DNA of 64,000 nucleotides from Clostridia bacterium (GTDB lineage Bacteria; Bacillota; Clostridia; Monoglobales; Firm-18): positions 11,512-75,511 of the forward strand of contig JAZQIO010000006.1 of assembly GCA_045541135.1 (NCBI GenBank), written 5' to 3'. Of this stretch, positions 2,768 through 54,450 are shown one piece after another. A model generated the notes under the pieces. It was not told the DNA's origin, searched no databases, and was given only the letters and a program-made list of their open reading frames with translations. Each line of letters starts with the position of its first letter. Position 1 is the first letter of the stretch. Position numbers and translations under genes: made by a program.

Positions 2768-4240
2768 ATGAAATATTTACTTGGAATTGATTTTGGCGGC
2801 GGTGCCTCAAAGGCTACACTTTTAAGTGTAGAGGGTAAAATTGTTGCCACAAATACAACTGAATATCCTACAAATTATCCAAAGCCCGGCTATGCAGAGC
2901 AAAATCCTGACCATTGGGTGGAGGCTACCTGCGAAAATATTAAGGGTGTGCTTTCAAAAAGCGGTGTTATGCCAGAAGATATTTGTGCATTATCCCTTGA
3001 TGCGGCTACGCATACTGCGGTAATTATGGACGAAAACTTTAATGTTATACGCCCCGCTATTTACTGGACAGATACCAGAAGCACAAAGGAAGTAGCGTAT
3101 TTAAAAGAAAATTACGGAGACGTAATTGAAAAGCAGGTGCTACATAAGGCGGACACAATATGGTCACTGCCCGAGCTTATGTGGATTAAAAATAACGAGC
3201 CCGAAAACTGGGGAAGGGTAAAAAAGATTTTGTTTGCAAAGGACTATGTACGCCATTGCCTTACAGGTGACTATGTTACCGATTTTATTGAGGCAGAAGG
3301 CAGTATGATGTTTGACATCAATACAATGCAGTGGAGCAGAGAGCTTTGTGACATTTTGGAAATTGATGTTAATATGATGCCGAAAATTGTAAAGCCTACT
3401 GATATTGTTGGTAAAATTACGGCAGAGGCAGCTGCTCTTACAGGTCTTTTAGAGGGTACACCGGTGCTTTGCGGAACAACGGATACAGTTATGGAGGTTT
3501 TTGCTTCCGGTGCTGTTACAAAGGGAGCAATGACTTTAAAGCTTGCAACAGCAGGCAGAATTTGTGTGGTTACGGATAAACCGTATCCAGACATTAATCT
3601 TATTAACTATTCCCACGTTATAGACGGTTTATTTTACCCGGGTACGGCTACAAAGTCCTGTGCCGCATCTTACAGATGGTACCGTGACACCTTTGGCGGT
3701 GACTATGCCGAGCTTGATAAATTGGCAGAGGGTGTTGCAATAGGATCAGATGGACTTGTGTTCCACCCATATTTAAACGGTGAGCTTACACCTTATGCTA
3801 ACCCGAATTTGTGTGCAGATTTTGTAGGTGTGCGTTCTTCACACACAAAGGCACATTTTACAAGAGCGGTTTTAGAAGGTGTTGCAATGTCTATGCTGGA
3901 TTGCAAAACTGCACTTGATAATCTTAATATTCCGCACAGTGACAGCGCTGTTATAATAGGCGGTGGCGGTAAAAGTCCACTTTGGCGACAGATGATTTCC
4001 GACGCTTTGGGCATTAAGCTTGTGGAAATGAAATATGCAGATTCCTCACTTGGCAGTGCTATGCTTGCAGGTATTGCAGTAGGTGTTTTTGAAAGCCCTG
4101 AAGTGGCTGTGGCTACTTGCAATGCAGTAGTTTCCGAAACACTTCCAAACAGTGAAAATACAAAGGAATATGCAAAATTATTTAAAAAATATAAAGCAGT
4201 TCAAAAGGCATTAGAGCCTATATATAACGGAGAATTTTAA
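2768..4240 (+). CDS. FGGY-family carbohydrate kinase (xylulokinase-like)
   Basis: MKYLLGIDFGGGASK actin-fold N-terminus and IIGGGGKSPLW C-terminal motif. Start moved from ORF start 2711 to ATG 2768. Confidence 0.85.
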   Translation: MKYLLGIDFGGGASKATLLSVEGKIVATNTTEYPTNYPKPGYAEQNPDHWVEATCENIKGVLSKSGVMPEDICALSLDAATHTAVIMDENFNVIRPAIYWTDTRSTKEVAYLKENYGDVIEKQVLHKADTIWSLPELMWIKNNEPENWGRVKKILFAKDYVRHCLTGDYVTDFIEAEGSMMFDINTMQWSRELCDILEIDVNMMPKIVKPTDIVGKITAEAAALTGLLEGTPVLCGTTDTVMEVFASGAVTKGAMTLKLATAGRICVVTDKPYPDINLINYSHVIDGLFYPGTATKSCAASYRWYRDTFGGDYAELDKLAEGVAIGSDGLVFHPYLNGELTPYANPNLCADFVGVRSSHTKAHFTRAVLEGVAMSMLDCKTALDNLNIPHSDSAVIIGGGGKSPLWRQMISDALGIKLVEMKYADSSLGSAMLAGIAVGVFESPEVAVATCNAVVSETLPNSENTKEYAKLFKKYKAVQKALEPIYNGEF

Positions 4241-6974: not shown

Positions 6975-8651
6975 TTATCTTATTTCACATGTTTCAACAA
7001 AGTCCATATCGTCAAATTCCTGGTTTTCACCGCACATTGCCCAGATAAAGGAATATGCCTTTGTACCAACGCCTGAATGAATTGACCAGCTTGGTGAGAT
7101 TACAGCTTCTTCATTGTGCATTACAATATGTCTTGTTTCTGTAGGTTCACCCATCATATGGAATACTGCATCATTTTCACCCATATCAAGATACAGATAA
7201 ACTTCCATTCTTCTGTCGTGTGTATGTGTTGGCATTGTGTTCCAGTTTGAGCCGGGTTCTAACTGTGTAAGACCCATTGTAAGCTGACAGCTTTTAATTA
7301 CATCCGGATGAATGTATTGGTTAATTACACGCTTGTTGCAGTCTTCAACTGAACCAAGTGGCACCTTTTTAGCCTTTTCAATATCTATTTTAACAATTGG
7401 GTATGATGCATGTGCAGGGCATGATGATACATAGAATTTTGCAGGGTTTTCAGGGTCAATGCTCTTAAATGAAACTTCCTTGTTGCCCATACCTATGTAA
7501 ATACCGTCACGTGGGTTCATTTCATATTCTGTGCCGTCAATTGTTATAACACCCTTGCCACCTATGTTGATACAGCCCATTTCACGTCTTTCCAAAAAGT
7601 ATTCGCTTGCAAGCTCCTTGCCGCCTTCTAGTGAAAGTGATCTTGCAACAGGCATAAGACCTGCTGTTATAATTCTGTCAATATGGCTGTAAACCATTCT
7701 GATGTTATCCTTTGTGAAAAGCTTGCTGATGTGGAATTCTTCTCTTAGTCTTTCTGTTGTGTAGTGTTTTACGTCTCTTGGGTTTGAAGCGCATCTGATT
7801 TCCATTTTACTTAAATCCTCCTTAATATATTTTCCGTATACTTCAATTTGTGTAAGTGCCGCAAATGAAAGTATTTCGGTTGCCTGAATAAAGTTTTTCA
7901 GGCGTATGTATTTTGTTGTTTTTTTGTTTACAGTAATTTCCTGACCCTTTGAATTTTCGGGGTTAAGGTCGGTGTTATCCATTGTAAATTCTCCGTGTAT
8001 TACTTCGCCGTCGGAAAATTCAATGTCAATATTTTTCCAGTATGAATCGTGTGGAAGGCCCGTTCTTTCTTCATGCTTAAAGTCTGCACGTAGGTAGAAA
8101 ACAAGCTTTTCAACCTCAACATCACAGCCAAAGTCAAGTACATATTCAAGGTCATCTCTTGCACCGCCTGCCCATGAATGGTATGGGTATTTGCCGTGAC
8201 CCTGGTTATTTATAACACCGTCTATTGCGTTACGTTCGTAAAAAGTCGGGTTTTCACGGGTAACAAAGTTTGCGGTTGAATGTGGATAGCCCCTTGTTTT
8301 TCCCTTAAGGTCGTGGGAATTAAGGGCAATGTTACGGTATGCGTAAATTTCTTCTTCACTTGGTTCACGTACGGATATAACCTGAACTTCTTTTGAAAAA
8401 GCATCGGGATTATATGCTGCCGCCAGTACCTTTGGTGATGGGACTGTAAATTCATAGTTACGGTCAGGTACATAAAGTATGCTTTCAGCAAGTGTTTCGT
8501 CAAACTTTACGGCAATATAGTCGCAACCGTCAAGAAGTACCTTTATTTTATCACCCTCCAAAAGAGTGCCTTTGTATTCGGCTTTTATGCTTTCGCCCTT
8601 TTGGGTAAGCTTTACTTCCTTATCGTTTCCGATAATTTTTAAAGTTAGCAT
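6975..8651 (-). CDS. kduI: In-frame fusion: 282-aa discoidin/F5-8-C-like domain + 276-aa 5-dehydro-4-deoxy-D-glucuronate isomerase (KduI)
   Basis: Continuous 558-aa ORF. The C-terminal 276 aa (ATG 7805) match full-length KduI (MPTHTHDRRMEVY, SPSWSIHSG). GGAGGTGA SD before ATG 8651, and a second SD, AAGGAGGA 7816-7823, before ATG 7805. Confidence 0.75.
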   Translation of the reverse strand: MLTLKIIGNDKEVKLTQKGESIKAEYKGTLLEGDKIKVLLDGCDYIAVKFDETLAESILYVPDRNYEFTVPSPKVLAAAYNPDAFSKEVQVISVREPSEEEIYAYRNIALNSHDLKGKTRGYPHSTANFVTRENPTFYERNAIDGVINNQGHGKYPYHSWAGGARDDLEYVLDFGCDVEVEKLVFYLRADFKHEERTGLPHDSYWKNIDIEFSDGEVIHGEFTMDNTDLNPENSKGQEITVNKKTTKYIRLKNFIQATEILSFAALTQIEVYGKYIKEDLSKMEIRCASNPRDVKHYTTERLREEFHISKLFTKDNIRMVYSHIDRIITAGLMPVARSLSLEGGKELASEYFLERREMGCINIGGKGVITIDGTEYEMNPRDGIYIGMGNKEVSFKSIDPENPAKFYVSSCPAHASYPIVKIDIEKAKKVPLGSVEDCNKRVINQYIHPDVIKSCQLTMGLTQLEPGSNWNTMPTHTHDRRMEVYLYLDMGENDAVFHMMGEPTETRHIVMHNEEAVISPSWSIHSGVGTKAYSFIWAMCGENQEFDDMDFVETCEIR

Positions 8652-11693: not shown

Positions 11694-12941
11694 ATGAAGG
11701 TTAAAATAGGTATAGTTGGTTTTGGAGAATTTTCACTTAGCCATCTTGATATATTTTTAAGGCATCCCGATGTTGAAACGGTGGTGGGTGCAGAGCTTAA
11801 TACTGAAAGAAGAAATGCGGTTTCAAATGAATACGGCATTAAAATGTATCAAAGCTTTGACCAAATGCTTGAAAATGACAAAGATATAAACAGCGTAGGT
11901 ATTTTTACGCCGAGGCATTTGCACGGACCTATGATTATAAAGGCACTAAAGGCAGGGAAAAACGTGTTTTCCGCAGTGCCTATGGGCTGTACAAGGGAGG
12001 AAATATTTGAAATTTTAGATCTTGTAAAAACTACGGGACTTACCTTTGCAATGGCGGAAACCTGTTATTATTTCCCCTGCGCAGTGTGGGCAAGAAAGGC
12101 TAAAAAAGAGGGTAAATTCGGCGATGTTATGTACGGTGAGGCACAGTATTATCACGACATTACTGAAATGCTCGGTGCCTATGAATCCAAAGCTATTGCA
12201 GGCATACCGCCCATGTTTTACGGTACACATTCTGCTGCAATGCTTATATCTGTATTCGGCGAAAGCCCGAAGGAGGTAAGCTGTTTTGGTATTGAGGATA
12301 AAATCGGCGACGGTATTTACGGCAAGGGTGTAAACCCCTGGGACAATTCATTTTCCAACGAAACTGCTGTTGTACGATTTGAAAGCGGTGCACTTGGAAG
12401 ATTAAATGAATTCCGACGCATTGGTACAACAAGACCCTCAAGCTATATAACAGGCATATACGGTAGTAAAGGGGCTTATGAATGTAGTGGCAATCAACAC
12501 TTTTTTTCACAGGGCAAGGTTTTCGGTCAACAGCCACAGTCTTTTGATGTAAGCGATGAAGTCAATACATACACCTTTGTGGAAAATAAGGAAAATATAA
12601 AAGACGGTGCAGGCAGACTTGACTATAAGTACCACACAGGCTGGTCTGCGGTACATAATACAAAACGCCTTCCAAAATGCCTTGTGGAAATGGCGGAGGA
12701 ATACAGGGCAAAAAATGAGCTTTCACAAATCGGTCACAACGGTTCACATTTCTTTACCATAGACGACTTTGTTAAGGCAGTTGTACAGAATCAAATACCG
12801 CCAATTAACGCATGGAGGTCTGCGGAATATACTTTGGTTGGCATTATTGCACACGAAAGTGCTGAACTGGGCGGAAAAACTTTGGAAATACCAAGTGTGG
12901 GAGACCTTCCCACAGACAAGGAGGTTTTGAATTTTGATTAG
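11694..12941 (+). CDS. Gfo/Idh/MocA-family NAD(P)-dependent oxidoreductase
   Basis: MKVKIGIVGFGEFS Rossmann N-terminus. Start set to ATG 11694 after GAGGTGA. Confidence 0.8.
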   Translation: MKVKIGIVGFGEFSLSHLDIFLRHPDVETVVGAELNTERRNAVSNEYGIKMYQSFDQMLENDKDINSVGIFTPRHLHGPMIIKALKAGKNVFSAVPMGCTREEIFEILDLVKTTGLTFAMAETCYYFPCAVWARKAKKEGKFGDVMYGEAQYYHDITEMLGAYESKAIAGIPPMFYGTHSAAMLISVFGESPKEVSCFGIEDKIGDGIYGKGVNPWDNSFSNETAVVRFESGALGRLNEFRRIGTTRPSSYITGIYGSKGAYECSGNQHFFSQGKVFGQQPQSFDVSDEVNTYTFVENKENIKDGAGRLDYKYHTGWSAVHNTKRLPKCLVEMAEEYRAKNELSQIGHNGSHFFTIDDFVKAVVQNQIPPINAWRSAEYTLVGIIAHESAELGGKTLEIPSVGDLPTDKEVLNFD

Positions 12942-13702: not shown

Positions 13703-13705
13703 GAA

Positions 13706-13937
13706 GGGAATGTAAAAAAAGTCCAGAACGCAAGAAAAAACAAAAAGCAAGATATTATCAATAAAATAATCGAATTAAATTTATGAAAACAAGGTAGAAA
13801 AATCGAAATTGTTCGATTTTTCATAAAATTACTTTTTTCTTGCTATGAACAAACCTCCCCCGAGCCGTACCATCGTACTGTCTCGGGTCACCCCTTCGAT
13901 TCGGTTTGTCCATTCTGAAACATTTTTTCCTATCCCC
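13706..13937. repeat. Intergenic repeat type 2, copy C (232 bp)
   Basis: Left end GGGAATGTAAAAAAAGTCCAGA is identical to copy A; rc of right end is GGGGATAGGAAAAAATGTTTCAGA. Shares the GAACAAACYTCMCC ... GGTTYRGTTTGTCCATTCTGAA core. Confidence 0.6.
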
Positions 13938-33910: not shown

Positions 33911-34252
33911 TTATTTATTTATATCATTTAAAAGCTTGTTGATATGTGCACCGTGCTCTATAGAATTATCAAGTGTAAACAATATTTCCGGTGTATAGCG
34001 AAGACCAAGTCTGTGAGCAAGCTCCTTACGTACAAAGCCTGCTGCATTTTTTAGTCCTTCAATTGCATCCTTCTGTGCGTTTTCATCACCAAAAACACTG
34101 ATATACGCCTTGCACCAGCGAAGGTCTTTTGTTATATCAACAGCTACCACACTGCAAAGACCCTTAGTAACCCTTGGGTCTTTGAGTTCCCGTATAATTG
34201 AACTTATTTCTTTGCGTGCTTCTTCATTAATTCTGTCTATTCTGTTTGCCAT
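33911..34252 (-). CDS. rbfA: Ribosome-binding factor A
   Basis: MANRIDRINEE... Start set to ATG 34252 after AGGAGAA. The ORF's upstream 16 codons lie inside the repeat element. Confidence 0.85.
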   Translation of the reverse strand: MANRIDRINEEARKEISSIIRELKDPRVTKGLCSVVAVDITKDLRWCKAYISVFGDENAQKDAIEGLKNAAGFVRKELAHRLGLRYTPEILFTLDNSIEHGAHINKLLNDINK

Positions 34253-34264
34253 AAGCAATTCTCC

Positions 34265-34540
34265 TAGCCGAAAGAGAATAATCCGAACCTCGATTTTCAA
34301 AGGTGAATTTCCGCTTTCGTTTTGTTAAAATACTCGGCAATCCATCAAGGATTACCTGCGTTTTTGCCTTACGCAACCAAAAATTCTCTCTTTGAAAATT
34401 CCATGACCTTAAACAGATGGAATTTCGAGCAGATTTTGGTGCGGAAGATGAAGCAAGGCTGACGCCTTGCGAAGATGACAAGCCTGAAGATACCGAAATT
34501 ACGCTGTTTAAGGCGGGTTCGGGTTACTATCTTTCGGCTA
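34265..34540. mobile_element. MITE-like non-coding element type 1, copy 1 (276 bp, ~25-bp TIRs)
   Basis: TIRs TAGCCGAAAGAGAATAATCCGAACC vs rc TAGCCGAAAGATAGTAACCCGAACC. Second copy at 54176-54450 (17 substitutions + 1 indel by hand). TA on both flanks; no conserved ORF. Confidence 0.65.
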
Positions 34541-52174: not shown

Positions 52175-54163
52175 TCAGTTCCAGGTTTCCTCCAATGTCA
52201 TTGAAAGTTCGCCGTCAAAATACACATCAATGTAACTCACATTCGAAGAAGACGGCTTTGCAACATTAAATGAGAATGAAAACTCATCCTTGCTGTGTTT
52301 TTTGTAATAAATCTGAGACCCATCCTGATTTACCTTAACCAAAACAGTATCCCTGTCCTGAGGAAGATTTATTGTAATATTTTTCATCTGTGCTGCTTCT
52401 TCTGCCTTTTTAAGTGTTAAATGAATAACAGCACCCTCTGCAACTACATTGCCTTCATATACTGCTTTTTTTCCACCTACGGAATCTTCATCTTCAACAA
52501 ACATACCTGTTACAACATAATGGTCAGGTGCACCGGCTGGGTCAGTACCACCAAGGTCAAGACCGTTATTTTTCAGCCATTCCTTAGCATCCTTAAGCTT
52601 TAATTCTGTAATATTTTCCATTTTAACGCCCTTGATACCCAAATACACGGTTATTTCATCATTTTTTTCCACCATAGTATCTGCCTTGGGCTCTGTTTTT
52701 AAAACCTTGCCGATACTTTCTGTTTCGGTAACCGGCTCTTTTACAACATTGACGGTAAAGTCATAATCCTTTTCATAATTTTTAAGCTCTTTTTCATATT
52801 CCTTTTCCGTCATACTTACAAGATCAGGCATCATAAAGCTGTCAAAAGGAACTGCAACTCTTATGGTTATGGTATGTTTAGCCTTTATAGTATCTCCGGG
52901 CTTAGGATCCTGAGATAAAACAACACCTTCTTTTTGGTCGCTCTTTTCTTCAACAACTTCAATTTTAAAGTTACCGCCGTTTTCCATATCGTATTTTTCA
53001 ATAACAGCCTTGTAATCCATACCCATAAGATTAGGAGTTTCCAGAGTTTTGGTTGTACAACCGGAAAAACCGCCACCTAAAAGTCCCCACAATACAAGCC
53101 ACATAGCAAGGACAATAACCGCAAAGGATGATATAATCGCCAAAGCAACTGCTGTTTTTGTACCCTTTTCGGCAGGCTTTTTATTTTTATCGGTTGTTCT
53201 TCTTCCGTCGGTATGTACAGGTCTGCGTGCTGTACTACCCGCTTCACTATCAGGCTTATGATTAGGCTTAGGCTCGGGCTTTACAGGTTCCATTTTAATT
53301 GTATCACCATAATTAACGGGAACGTCCGGAATAATATGCTCGGATGGCTTTTGCATCGCCTTATTTAAGTCTGCAAGCATTTCTTCGGCAGACTGATACC
53401 GTAAGCTTTGTTCCTTGCTCATAGCCTTTAAAATAATTGCCTCTACAGAAAGTGGAACGGAAATATTAAATTCCTTAGGGCTTACAGGTTTTTCCTGCAT
53501 ATGCTTAATTGCAATTGCAATAGGGCTTTCTCCGTTAAAGGGAAGTATTCCTGTTATAAGCTCGTACATAACAATGCCCAAAGAGTACAGGTCACTTTTT
53601 GCATCGGTATATCCGCCTCTTGCCTGCTCCGGTGAAAAATAATGTACAGAGCCCATTGTACTTTCGCCCATATTTGTGGTTTCGTTTGTAGCCGCACGTG
53701 CTATACCAAAGTCCGTAACCTTAAGCACACCGTCATTTGTAAGAATAATGTTCTGGGGCTTTATGTCACGGTGAATAATACCGTTTTTATGTGCACGGTC
53801 AAGTGCAGAACAAATCTGTATTGCATATTCAACAGTTTCCTGCCATGAAAGCATACCGTTTGCATCAATATATTCTTTTAAAGTCTGACCCTCAACATAT
53901 TCCATAACGATGTAATGAATGTCACCGTCGTGACCAACATCATAAACATTAACAATATTAGGGCTTGAAATTGTTGCGGCAACCTGAGCTTCCTTGTTGA
54001 ATCTTTCTAAAAATTCCTTATCATTTACAAATTCGCTTTTTAAAATTTTAACTGCAACATTTCTGTTAAGCAAACGGCAATGTGCAAGGTAAACATTTGC
54101 CATACCTCCGCTGCCTATTTCTTTTAATAATTCATATCTGTTTCCCAAAATCATACCAATCAT
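52175..54163 (-). CDS. pknB: Ser/Thr protein kinase with PASTA repeats (PrkC/PknB)
   Basis: GSGGMANVY...VAVK, HRDIKPQNIL, DFGIA; one TM, then PASTA-like repeats. Start set to ATG 54163 after GGGAGGT. The ORF's upstream 16 codons lie in the repeat element. Confidence 0.9.
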   Translation of the reverse strand: MIGMILGNRYELLKEIGSGGMANVYLAHCRLLNRNVAVKILKSEFVNDKEFLERFNKEAQVAATISSPNIVNVYDVGHDGDIHYIVMEYVEGQTLKEYIDANGMLSWQETVEYAIQICSALDRAHKNGIIHRDIKPQNIILTNDGVLKVTDFGIARAATNETTNMGESTMGSVHYFSPEQARGGYTDAKSDLYSLGIVMYELITGILPFNGESPIAIAIKHMQEKPVSPKEFNISVPLSVEAIILKAMSKEQSLRYQSAEEMLADLNKAMQKPSEHIIPDVPVNYGDTIKMEPVKPEPKPNHKPDSEAGSTARRPVHTDGRRTTDKNKKPAEKGTKTAVALAIISSFAVIVLAMWLVLWGLLGGGFSGCTTKTLETPNLMGMDYKAVIEKYDMENGGNFKIEVVEEKSDQKEGVVLSQDPKPGDTIKAKHTITIRVAVPFDSFMMPDLVSMTEKEYEKELKNYEKDYDFTVNVVKEPVTETESIGKVLKTEPKADTMVEKNDEITVYLGIKGVKMENITELKLKDAKEWLKNNGLDLGGTDPAGAPDHYVVTGMFVEDEDSVGGKKAVYEGNVVAEGAVIHLTLKKAEEAAQMKNITINLPQDRDTVLVKVNQDGSQIYYKKHSKDEFSFSFNVAKPSSSNVSYIDVYFDGELSMTLEETWN

Positions 54164-54175
54164 AATCAAACCTCC

Positions 54176-54450
54176 CAGCCGAAAGATAATAATCCGAACC
54201 TCGATTTTCAAAGGTGAATTTTCGCTTTCGTTTTGTTAAAATACTCGGCAATCCGTCAGGATTACCTGCGTTTTTGCCTTACGCAACCAAAAATTTTCTC
54301 TTTAAAAATTCCTTGACCTTAAACAGATGGAATTTTGAGCAGATTATGGTGCGGAAGATGATGCAAGGCTGACACCTTGCAAAGATGACAAGCCTAAAGA
54401 TGTCGAAATTACGCTGTTTAAGGCGGATTCAGGTTACTATCTTTCGGCTA
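54176..54450. mobile_element. MITE-like non-coding element type 1, copy 2 (275 bp)
   Basis: Collinear with 34265-34540 along its full length. TIR left CAGCCGAAAGATAATAATCCGAACC, right rc TAGCCGAAAGATAGTAACCTGAATC. Lies between the stp stop and the pknB SD. Confidence 0.65.

Follow-up and report, generated by a model that had tools for sequence, protein, structure and literature searches.

A probable TA-targeting, structured MITE-like repeat of uncultured gut Clostridia at the infB-rbfA operon junction

The Correia elements of Neisseria (CREE/NEMIS) are flanked by TA, carry terminal inverted repeats (TIRs) of ~25 bp, are non-coding and often lie just upstream of genes or inside operons; they are co-transcribed, and their TIR stem is cleaved by RNase III (PMC10969869). 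The ERIC or IRU sequences of enterobacteria and Yersinia are imperfect palindromes in transcribed intergenic regions, which exert an orientation-dependent effect on the neighbouring mRNA via an exposed RNase E site (PMC10969869, PMC3049150), while RUP of Streptococcus pneumoniae is a Firmicute MITE (miniature inverted-repeat transposable element), whose TIRs pair into a duplex and which is proposed to be mobilized in trans by a transposase, thought to be that of the insertion sequence (IS) IS630-Spn1 (PMC3049150). Here we analyze a 276-nt insert between infB and rbfA, found in a 64,000-nt stretch of the genome of a Clostridia bacterium (contig JAZQIO010000006.1, positions 11,512 to 75,511 of the forward strand; hereafter the window), that by analogy appears to work most like these three families, with a TA target, a TIR duplex and an operon-internal position. 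However, Correia elements are simple hairpins of ~100-155 bp that belong to a Proteobacterial host and contain an IHF site as well as outward promoters, whereas our element has 276 bp and a predicted three-way junction whose two arms covary; a promoter scan called no sigma-70 promoter in it, and its sequence is not similar to theirs. ERIC sequences (~127 bp) form a single hairpin and belong to Gammaproteobacteria, whereas for our element an orientation effect is suggested by the distribution of copies only; for RUP, of 107 bp, an IS whose TIRs resemble its own has been identified, while none was found for the element.

The closest analogue of the covarying two-arm architecture is bcr1 of the Bacillus cereus group, like our element a non-autonomous Firmicute repeat, which is transcribed and adopts a cruciform-like fold with two independent stem-loops and compensatory base changes (PMC3184786). 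bcr1 is nevertheless ~155 bp long and generates 5-bp direct repeats at its target, in contrast with the 276 bp, TA target and long TIR helix of our element, and the two sequences are unrelated. BOX elements of S. pneumoniae likewise consist of recombining modules, and display tight RNA folding and orientation-dependent effects on neighbouring genes (PMC3049150), but their boxA, boxB and boxC modules vary in number, whereas here a core of fixed length has its termini exchanged. REP/REPIN sequences with their RAYT are also hairpin-forming extragenic repeats without a transposase inside, occurring as solo hairpins and doublets; they are however only ~20-40 nt long and G+C-rich, are linked to one flanked RAYT gene and do not have TA flanks or TIRs of 25 bp among their features, and no Y1 gene was seen with an approximate query in 1.3 Mb of the loci collected here. 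By size, target or sequence, the element is not a member of the Correia, ERIC, RUP or bcr1 families; the initial annotation, which had likened it to operon-internal MITEs of Correia/ERIC/RUP type and recognized no named family, was right in its identification.

The copy at infB-rbfA (copy 1) occupies positions 34265 to 34540 of the minus strand, which is that of the operon (hereafter the T orientation), and its 276 nt include a flanking TA at each end. Coordinates and sequence agree that the insert spans the interval from the infB stop to the rbfA Shine-Dalgarno sequence (SD), as initially annotated. Its ends, TAGCCGAAAGAGAATAATCCGAACC and the reverse complement of ...GGTTCGGGTTACTATCTTTCGGCTA, that is TAGCCGAAAGATAGTAACCCGAACC, agree at 22 of 25 positions on a recount in the window copy, consistent with the imperfect ~25-bp TIRs first described. 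The terminal 11-mer of the element occurs six times in the window, against 0.74 expected. Using an exact internal 24-mer, we found 22 matches in four Clostridia metagenome-assembled genomes (MAGs), often at contig ends; repeats of this element break MAG assemblies. A degenerate TIR pattern retrieved at least 117 TIR-bearing stretches from at least ~32 assemblies of uncultured Clostridia of human and ruminant guts, and in the loci collected 60 of 67 TIR pairs are spaced 271-283 bp apart, with a mode of 276. In agreement with the expectation that further copies exist, at least 60 are full-length, again within at least ~32 assemblies. These data document an unnamed repeat family that is widespread in uncultured gut and rumen Clostridia (at least ~32 MAG species).

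The infB-rbfA junction itself provides evidence of insertion. In six relatives (loci L023, L024, L025 and L027-L029), the junction is uninterrupted and contains a single TA, reading ...CCAAGATA(A/G)GGnGG...ATG, which is the empty site that had been predicted from the window alone; RbfA identity is 98% in L023, 96% in L024, 94% in L025 and 90-82% in L027-L029, and L024 belongs to a MAG that bears the element elsewhere. Conversely, a site occupied in L001 is empty in the window, at ~9700. Most insertion sites differ among three close genomes (that of the window, JAZQAN [SGB_1291] and CAZNKU), indicating that the element has kept moving since their split. Copies and empty sites, together with the lack of any Rfam, phage or plasmid match, support the earlier view of a mobile insert that is bounded by TIRs, does not code for protein, exists in multiple copies and belongs to an unnamed family. 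Of the features by which generic MITEs are operationally defined, the element has a small size (276 bp, below ~400 bp) with no conserved open reading frame (ORF), TIRs, and many dispersed copies with filled and empty orthologous sites; its TA flanks are consistent with a target-site duplication, and a parent IS was not found in the loci and collections scanned. We therefore consider it probable that the element is a non-autonomous, TA-targeting, TIR-bounded and structured MITE-like repeat of an unnamed family of uncultured gut Clostridia. A different explanation would be a leader or attenuator RNA that is not mobile and serves specifically rbfA or the nusA-infB operon, in keeping with a strongly structured element that fills the entire infB-rbfA gap; it is refuted by the six close relatives in which the same junction is empty and by the presence of the element at dozens of unrelated loci, and in L026 this junction holds another, sister element of opposite orientation, so that we give this explanation virtually no credence.

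The ends read TAG...CTA in 49 of 54 copies and empty sites carry one TA, which points to TA as the target, most simply duplicated upon insertion, although TA flanks with single-TA empty sites fit a one-sided TA belonging to the element as well as they fit a 2-bp duplication. Read inward, either end begins with TA|G, so that a TAA or TAG stop codon whose TA receives the element is restored as an in-frame TAG (TA+G), and the host stop codon overlaps the element boundary in this manner in 10 of 55 copies. Copy 1 is one such case: the infB stop TAG (34540-34538, minus strand) consists of the first three bases of the element, which transposed into the TA of this codon once the window lineage had split from its nearest sequenced relatives. 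At the other end, the rbfA SD (GGAG, 34264-34261) begins one base past the final base of the copy and is followed by an 8-nt spacer and the ATG at 34252-34250; this ribosome-binding site (34250..34264, minus strand) is host sequence, and comparison with the empty junctions of relatives shows that the insertion leaves the SD-ATG unit intact. With the upstream gene keeping an in-frame stop and the downstream SD-ATG untouched, the insertion is tolerated even in an essential operon. The family repeatedly enters the tightest essential-operon junctions without breaking them, because the stop codon is rebuilt and the SD spared. The gene order around copy 1 is nusA-rnpM-ylxQ-infB-[element]-rbfA-nrnA-truB-ribF, all on the minus strand (NCBIfam).

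The second copy in the window, reported initially at a distance of ~20 kb, lies at 54176 to 54450 on the minus strand; it is 275 bp long and 93.8% identical to copy 1, with one 1-nt indel. It sits between the PP2C phosphatase gene stp1 and the PASTA kinase gene stk1/PknB (prkC) (NCBIfam) and shows the same geometry as copy 1, with the stp1 stop TAG at 54450-54448, the SD GGAGG at 54175-54171 and the stk1/PknB ATG at 54163-54161, while its 3′ flanking TA has mutated to TG. In both copies, the final base of the element is thus followed by the GGAG(G)-N7/8-ATG of the downstream gene. The first-start ORF calls for rbfA (33911-34300) and for the PknB-like kinase (52175-54211), both on the minus strand, begin at a TTG inside the element; the true starts are likely the SD-preceded ATGs at 34252 (rbfA) and 54163 (kinase), and automatic annotation of carrier genomes may over-extend genes such as rbfA and prkC into the element.

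In agreement with the initial annotation, no ORF is conserved between copies. An 84-aa ORF of copy 1 (34227-34481, minus strand) does not remain open in copy 2, stop codons are present in most copies, and the family consensus has an in-frame TGA and no start codon. Moreover, substitutions show no 3-nt periodicity in any window of the copy alignment, and the longest stop-free runs (median 50-68 codons) extend out of the element. These observations make it highly improbable that the element encodes a small protein, whether the 84-aa ORF or a plus-strand peptide across one of its two hairpin arms, arm A, where one stretch translates as GAEDEARLTPC... with some synonymous-looking changes in distant subfamilies; these changes are explained by the helix covariation described below. 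Rfam 15 gave no match in the window at gathering thresholds and only chance-level matches at relaxed ones (E up to 10, all E >= 0.059), and nothing for the sister elements with other termini. Weak C/D-box snoRNA matches (E 0.06-0.5) were rejected, as they reflect GAUGA/CUGA words only and no K-turn could be drawn. The phage, plasmid and viral collections contain no match to the element, and a full-text literature search with the terminal sequence returned unrelated primers only. A plus-strand TGnTAAAAT was also discarded as a promoter candidate, the motif being lost in the CAKSFQ and JAFVSB subfamilies.

We aligned 60 copies over their full length (median pairwise identity 84%), and RNAalifold folded this alignment into a three-way junction of 78 pairs, 32 of which have double-sided changes. 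According to this model, the DNA or RNA of the element forms a three-way junction composed of a ~23-bp TIR helix and two hairpin arms of ~110 nt. The TIR helix (P0, helix 1 of the alignment) is kept across the 60 copies; its 5′ half in operon orientation is the TIR at 34517..34540 and its 3′ half the TIR at 34265..34288, both on the minus strand, the latter terminating in ...CTTTCGGCTA directly before the rbfA SD. As initially proposed, the TIRs are predicted to pair in the operon-strand transcript, as a near-continuous terminal helix of ~23 bp. Arm A (34406..34514, minus strand; helices 2-5) is a long imperfect hairpin, closed by CCTTAAACAG/CTGTTTAAGG and ending in the tip GCAAGGC-GTCA-GCCTTGC (34453-34470), with compensatory changes in 6 of 11 closing pairs, such that the closing helix reads CCTGAAACGG/CCGTTTCAGG, CCTGAAAAGG/CCTTTTCAGG or CCTAAAAACC/GGTTTTTAGG in other subfamilies. 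Arm B (34293..34399, minus strand; helices 6-9) is a second long imperfect hairpin, with the tip GGTAATCC...GGATTGCC at 34336-34356 and compensatory changes in 11 of the 18 pairs of helix 6. The interior had been described as non-palindromic with local inverted repeats; the latter are indeed present in copy 1 (GCAAGGC-tgac-GCCTTGC at 34453-34470, CCTTAAACAG/CTGTTTAAGG and TTTTCAAAG/CTTTGAAAA), but rather than merely local repeats the interior consists of two long covarying hairpin arms.

Shuffled versions of the 60-copy alignment gave lower values for paired cells (96.8% in the alignment vs. 91.5 ± 0.2%), pairs changed on both sides (32 vs. 15 ± 2.1) and covariation score (0.185 vs. 0.088), and when partners were slid by 1-3 columns only 30-54% of cells remained paired. 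The initial annotation had regarded covariation as a finding that would speak against mobility; this does not hold, since covariation is here a property of the whole mobile family. Either strand of the window copy folds into the same Y shape, with an energy of -105.8 kcal/mol for the operon strand (z = -6.5 relative to shuffles) and of -103.3 kcal/mol for the opposite one (z = -5.5). In the strand-neutral set of pairs, i.e., those predicted on both strands, we counted 48 G·U against 41 A·C. As the two are equally frequent, the data do not distinguish which strand is selected, nor whether RNA or single-stranded DNA is the selected form. The operon strand contains conserved unpaired pyrimidine-rich stretches. 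Direct repeats flank the tip hairpin of arm A (34441-34452 and 34471-34483), reading TCATCTT on the operon strand and SD-like GAAGATGA on the plus strand, and GAGGACGA in distant subfamilies; they vary at the same two positions (A/G, T/C) across subfamilies and are not mutually complementary.

The element is unusually constrained. Copies in the window, JAZQAN and CAZNKU are 93-97% mutually identical, within as well as between genomes, and between species with a synonymous-site divergence of ~33% (one third) the identity is 95-97%. At a site upstream of dapA, the element is 97.5% identical between two of these genomes, vs. 66.5% at dapA third codon positions, and in two more distant orthologous pairs its identity is 81% vs. 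68% and 83% vs. 74% in the coding flanks, so that the element exceeds its coding flanks in three of three orthologous pairs. The dapA site is occupied in three related species (L018 7696-7970, L118 449-723, L167 1427-~1505), and the copy in L167 is decayed, having lost ~197 nt or two thirds of its length. Singleton (private) substitutions occur at 0.36 per paired and 0.40 per unpaired column, and preserve pairing only slightly above chance, such that the signal of post-insertion selection is close to neutral. Given that private substitutions fall about equally on paired and unpaired columns, our reading of the alignment is that selection acts mainly on the propagating lineages rather than on each resident copy, and covers the whole 276 nt and the fold; the data can be accounted for without selection on every resident copy, while the dapA pair leaves open in-situ selection or gene conversion. 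Since the fold and nearly the whole sequence are preserved in propagating lineages, competence for spreading (or tolerance by the host) would depend on the whole structure and not on the TIRs alone.

We then considered where copies lie relative to genes. Taken in the T orientation, 26 of 55 copies have a gene start no more than 80 nt from their 3′ end, and 12 of 55 have one equally near their 5′ end. Directly after the terminal TA, 10 of the 55 copies show (A)GGAG, with a start codon 7-9 nt further on, an arrangement found at ~1% of intergenic TA sites in the same loci (p ~1e-10), and all 10 of these SD-adjoining copies are in the T orientation (p = 0.002; ~0.008 without two likely orthologous pairs). 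Likewise, at tight junctions, with the upstream gene ending at -3 to +13 nt and the downstream start within ~32 nt (mostly 10-20), all ~11 copies are T-oriented, and the six co-directional cases of opposite orientation occupy wider spacers. The downstream genes have no common functional theme (rsmI, dapA, a penicillin-binding protein gene, glgC, mcsA, a citrate synthase gene, divIVA, atpD, degV, rbfA and prkC). The final 25 nt before the SD are nearly alike in either orientation, implying that the orientation bias stems from the interior or from the insertion mechanism. On the opposite strand, the arm-B hairpin is followed by TGCGTTTTTG, which contains a T5 run, and thus resembles a terminator; this favours selection against the polar orientation inside operons as the source of the bias, such that in tight operon junctions only the T orientation would survive, the opposite strand with its hairpin and T5 run being polar. 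A replication-linked mechanism is an alternative source: GC skew is positive on the T strand for 36 of 55 copies, and for 14 of the 18 that lack an adjacent gene start.

The initial annotation had stated that no T-run terminator is present in the operon orientation. Indeed no canonical one was found, although under lenient settings the minus strand shows two weak sites in which a hairpin is combined with an interrupted T run. Because of this lack of a canonical terminator, the element would be co-transcribed with infB and rbfA. In such an mRNA, by analogy with Correia and ERIC sequences, the terminal helix may be a substrate for RNase III, and cleavage would split the transcript into an infB half and an rbfA half, both with a hairpin as cap. 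The ideas of RNase III cleavage, translational uncoupling and mRNA stabilization put forward initially are plausible by the same analogy, and the net effect of the element on the operon is probably small.

Regarding the source of mobility, flanking TA together with TIRs of 25 bp suggests a DDE enzyme of the IS630/Tc1 kind that acts in trans. Members of the IS630 family duplicate TA, and a TA-duplicating transposase of this type is our default guess for the enzyme that would catalyze movement. A full-length parent IS with the same TIRs, for which the initial annotation had proposed to look, did not emerge from TIR-pair, unpaired-TIR, ORF and exclusion-pattern scans, and no IS630-like partner was identified in the loci of carrier genomes, in a search that included no ISfinder-type library; nor did a scan of the metagenome collection reveal a non-MITE interior behind the TIR.

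Several observations weigh against a DDE-mobilized MITE that is a passenger in its host operons. A search for the TIR followed by a non-MITE interior, in one genome for each of 185,579 species, gave five matches, all of them ordinary copies; the collected loci contain no TIR pair spaced 1-5 kb apart, and no multi-copy ORF is present in 0.95 Mb of element-bearing DNA, although these results do not prove the absence of a parent, the 117 stretches of the initial TIR scan being a lower bound. In a DDE MITE only the TIRs need to be retained, and the whole-length constraint observed here is atypical for such an element. The insertion at the dapA site is seemingly common to three species and 97.5% identical in two of them, which suits in-situ selection or gene conversion better than the status of a neutral passenger. 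As for the proposed roles in the operon, the absence of strand preference in the covariation provides no specific support for a function of the operon-strand RNA, the terminator of the opposite strand is weak, with a C·A mismatch of its stem in the subfamily of the window, and sister elements with other termini adjoin SDs in both orientations. Whole-276-nt and fold conservation, placement in one orientation 5′ of ribosome-binding sites, and a core common to elements with interchangeable termini go beyond a routine MITE.

Alternatively, an HUH/Y1 enzyme could mobilize the element in single-stranded form, as for REPIN-RAYT or IS200/IS605-derived PATE, with the hairpin termini and arms as substrate and TA as the cleavage or target dinucleotide rather than a duplication; the failure to find a DDE parent is in line with this. 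The strand symmetry of the covariation is that expected of pairing at the DNA level, each terminus can self-close, ~60-nt mini-elements and 28-nt TA-flanked hairpins (see below) appear as independent insertions, the element strand follows the local GC skew in the proportions given above, and filled and empty sites cannot separate TA duplication from a one-sided TA. In contrast, true 25-bp inverted repeats that pair with each other, with TA on both sides, are what classically marks DDE/IS630-type elements, the bias in GC skew, at 65%, is weak and gene orientation confounds it, and phmmer with an approximate IS608 TnpA query found nothing in 3,658 ORFs from 1.3 Mb of loci, albeit a weak test. 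We thus regard mobilization by an HUH/Y1 enzyme as unlikely. If the fold is required for mobilization, this would point to an unusual transposition substrate.

The conservation of the element could also reflect a functional cis-acting RNA module that selection keeps in place, as a signal between cistrons for processing, stability or translation ("operon punctuation") immediately 5′ of the ribosome-binding site, a role with which mobility is compatible. Copies lie immediately 5′ of SDs in one orientation, their length is constant, their 276 nt and fold are conserved far beyond synonymous sites at dapA and beyond the flanks in all three orthologous pairs, the two-arm core is retained while termini are exchanged, and the unpaired pyrimidine-rich stretches are conserved on the operon strand. 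However, the closest relatives do without the element at infB-rbfA, the dapA-site copy of L167 has decayed, private mutations do not avoid paired positions, the downstream genes share no theme, G·U usage gives no strand signal, sister families lie beside SDs in both orientations, and no Rfam family corresponds to the element. On balance we hold such a retained function to be possible but doubtful; if the element does act in mRNA, it is a portable operon-processing signal. The MITE-like repeat moved in trans by a transposase is the reading that we prefer.

Relatives with other ends were found, in the first place at the infB-rbfA junction itself. In L026 this junction contains a different, TA-flanked insert with homologous arms A and B, in the orientation opposite to that of copy 1, whose termini are 28-nt hairpins resembling a tRNA acceptor/T-arm minihelix; the T-arm-like hairpins of L026 lie upstream of rbfA, ~1150 to 870 nt before locus position 1151. 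A tRNA identity of such flanks was rejected, as neither ARAGORN nor Rfam calls a tRNA, and they are the termini of the sister element. With a degenerate arm-A pattern, metagenomes yielded a further 21 elements, among which are several types of terminus and chimeras between types. About 12 of 60 type-1 copies abut a T-arm-like hairpin, with the TA in common; the T-arm-type elements are those that adjoin SDs in both orientations, and ~60-nt mini-elements and solo hairpins stack in tandem before AGGAGG. The 28-nt TA-flanked hairpins, such as GGCATACGGGGTTCGACTCCCGTGTGCC (loop TTCGACT), are seen in L198 (3470-3497, minus-strand reading), L208, L215, L216, L223 and L224, either solo, in tandem right before AGGAGG-N6-ATG, or as termini of ~280-nt elements with arms A and B. 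In the mini-elements, a single terminus of the 276-bp element is combined with an internal pseudo-end (…CTTTCGGCTA) that closes it; left-end and right-end types exist, at L106 ~4173-4233, L121 1220-1278, L148 1580-1641 and L178 ~7715-7775, several being directly followed by GGAGG-N8-ATG.

Two chimeric elements, in L217 (a copy on the minus strand, matched by the pattern on the plus strand at 12696-12728) and L221, combine a T-arm-type terminus with a type-1 or type-3 terminus. In L217 the two terminus types are fused at a common GTTCG motif (…CATACGGAGTTCGGATTAC…), which, judging from the sequence, suggests recombination between them. Such exchanges raise the possibility, quite unlikely in our estimate, that the selected unit is the conserved ~220-nt two-arm core and not the termini: a superfamily of mobile modules would then swap end-hairpins, some of which mimic a tRNA acceptor/T-arm minihelix, and home to TA by ribosome-binding sites, with the folded RNA serving as an intercistronic processing or insulation signal, or the fold as the substrate of a non-DDE mobilization machinery. 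That a constrained core with exchangeable ends represents something mechanistically new is a minority possibility.

Finally, the window contains a 52-nt motif that is unrelated to the element, AGGGAATGTAAAAAAAGTCCAGAMCGCAA..., at 1726-1777 and 13705-13756 (81% identity), just downstream of two plus-strand genes.

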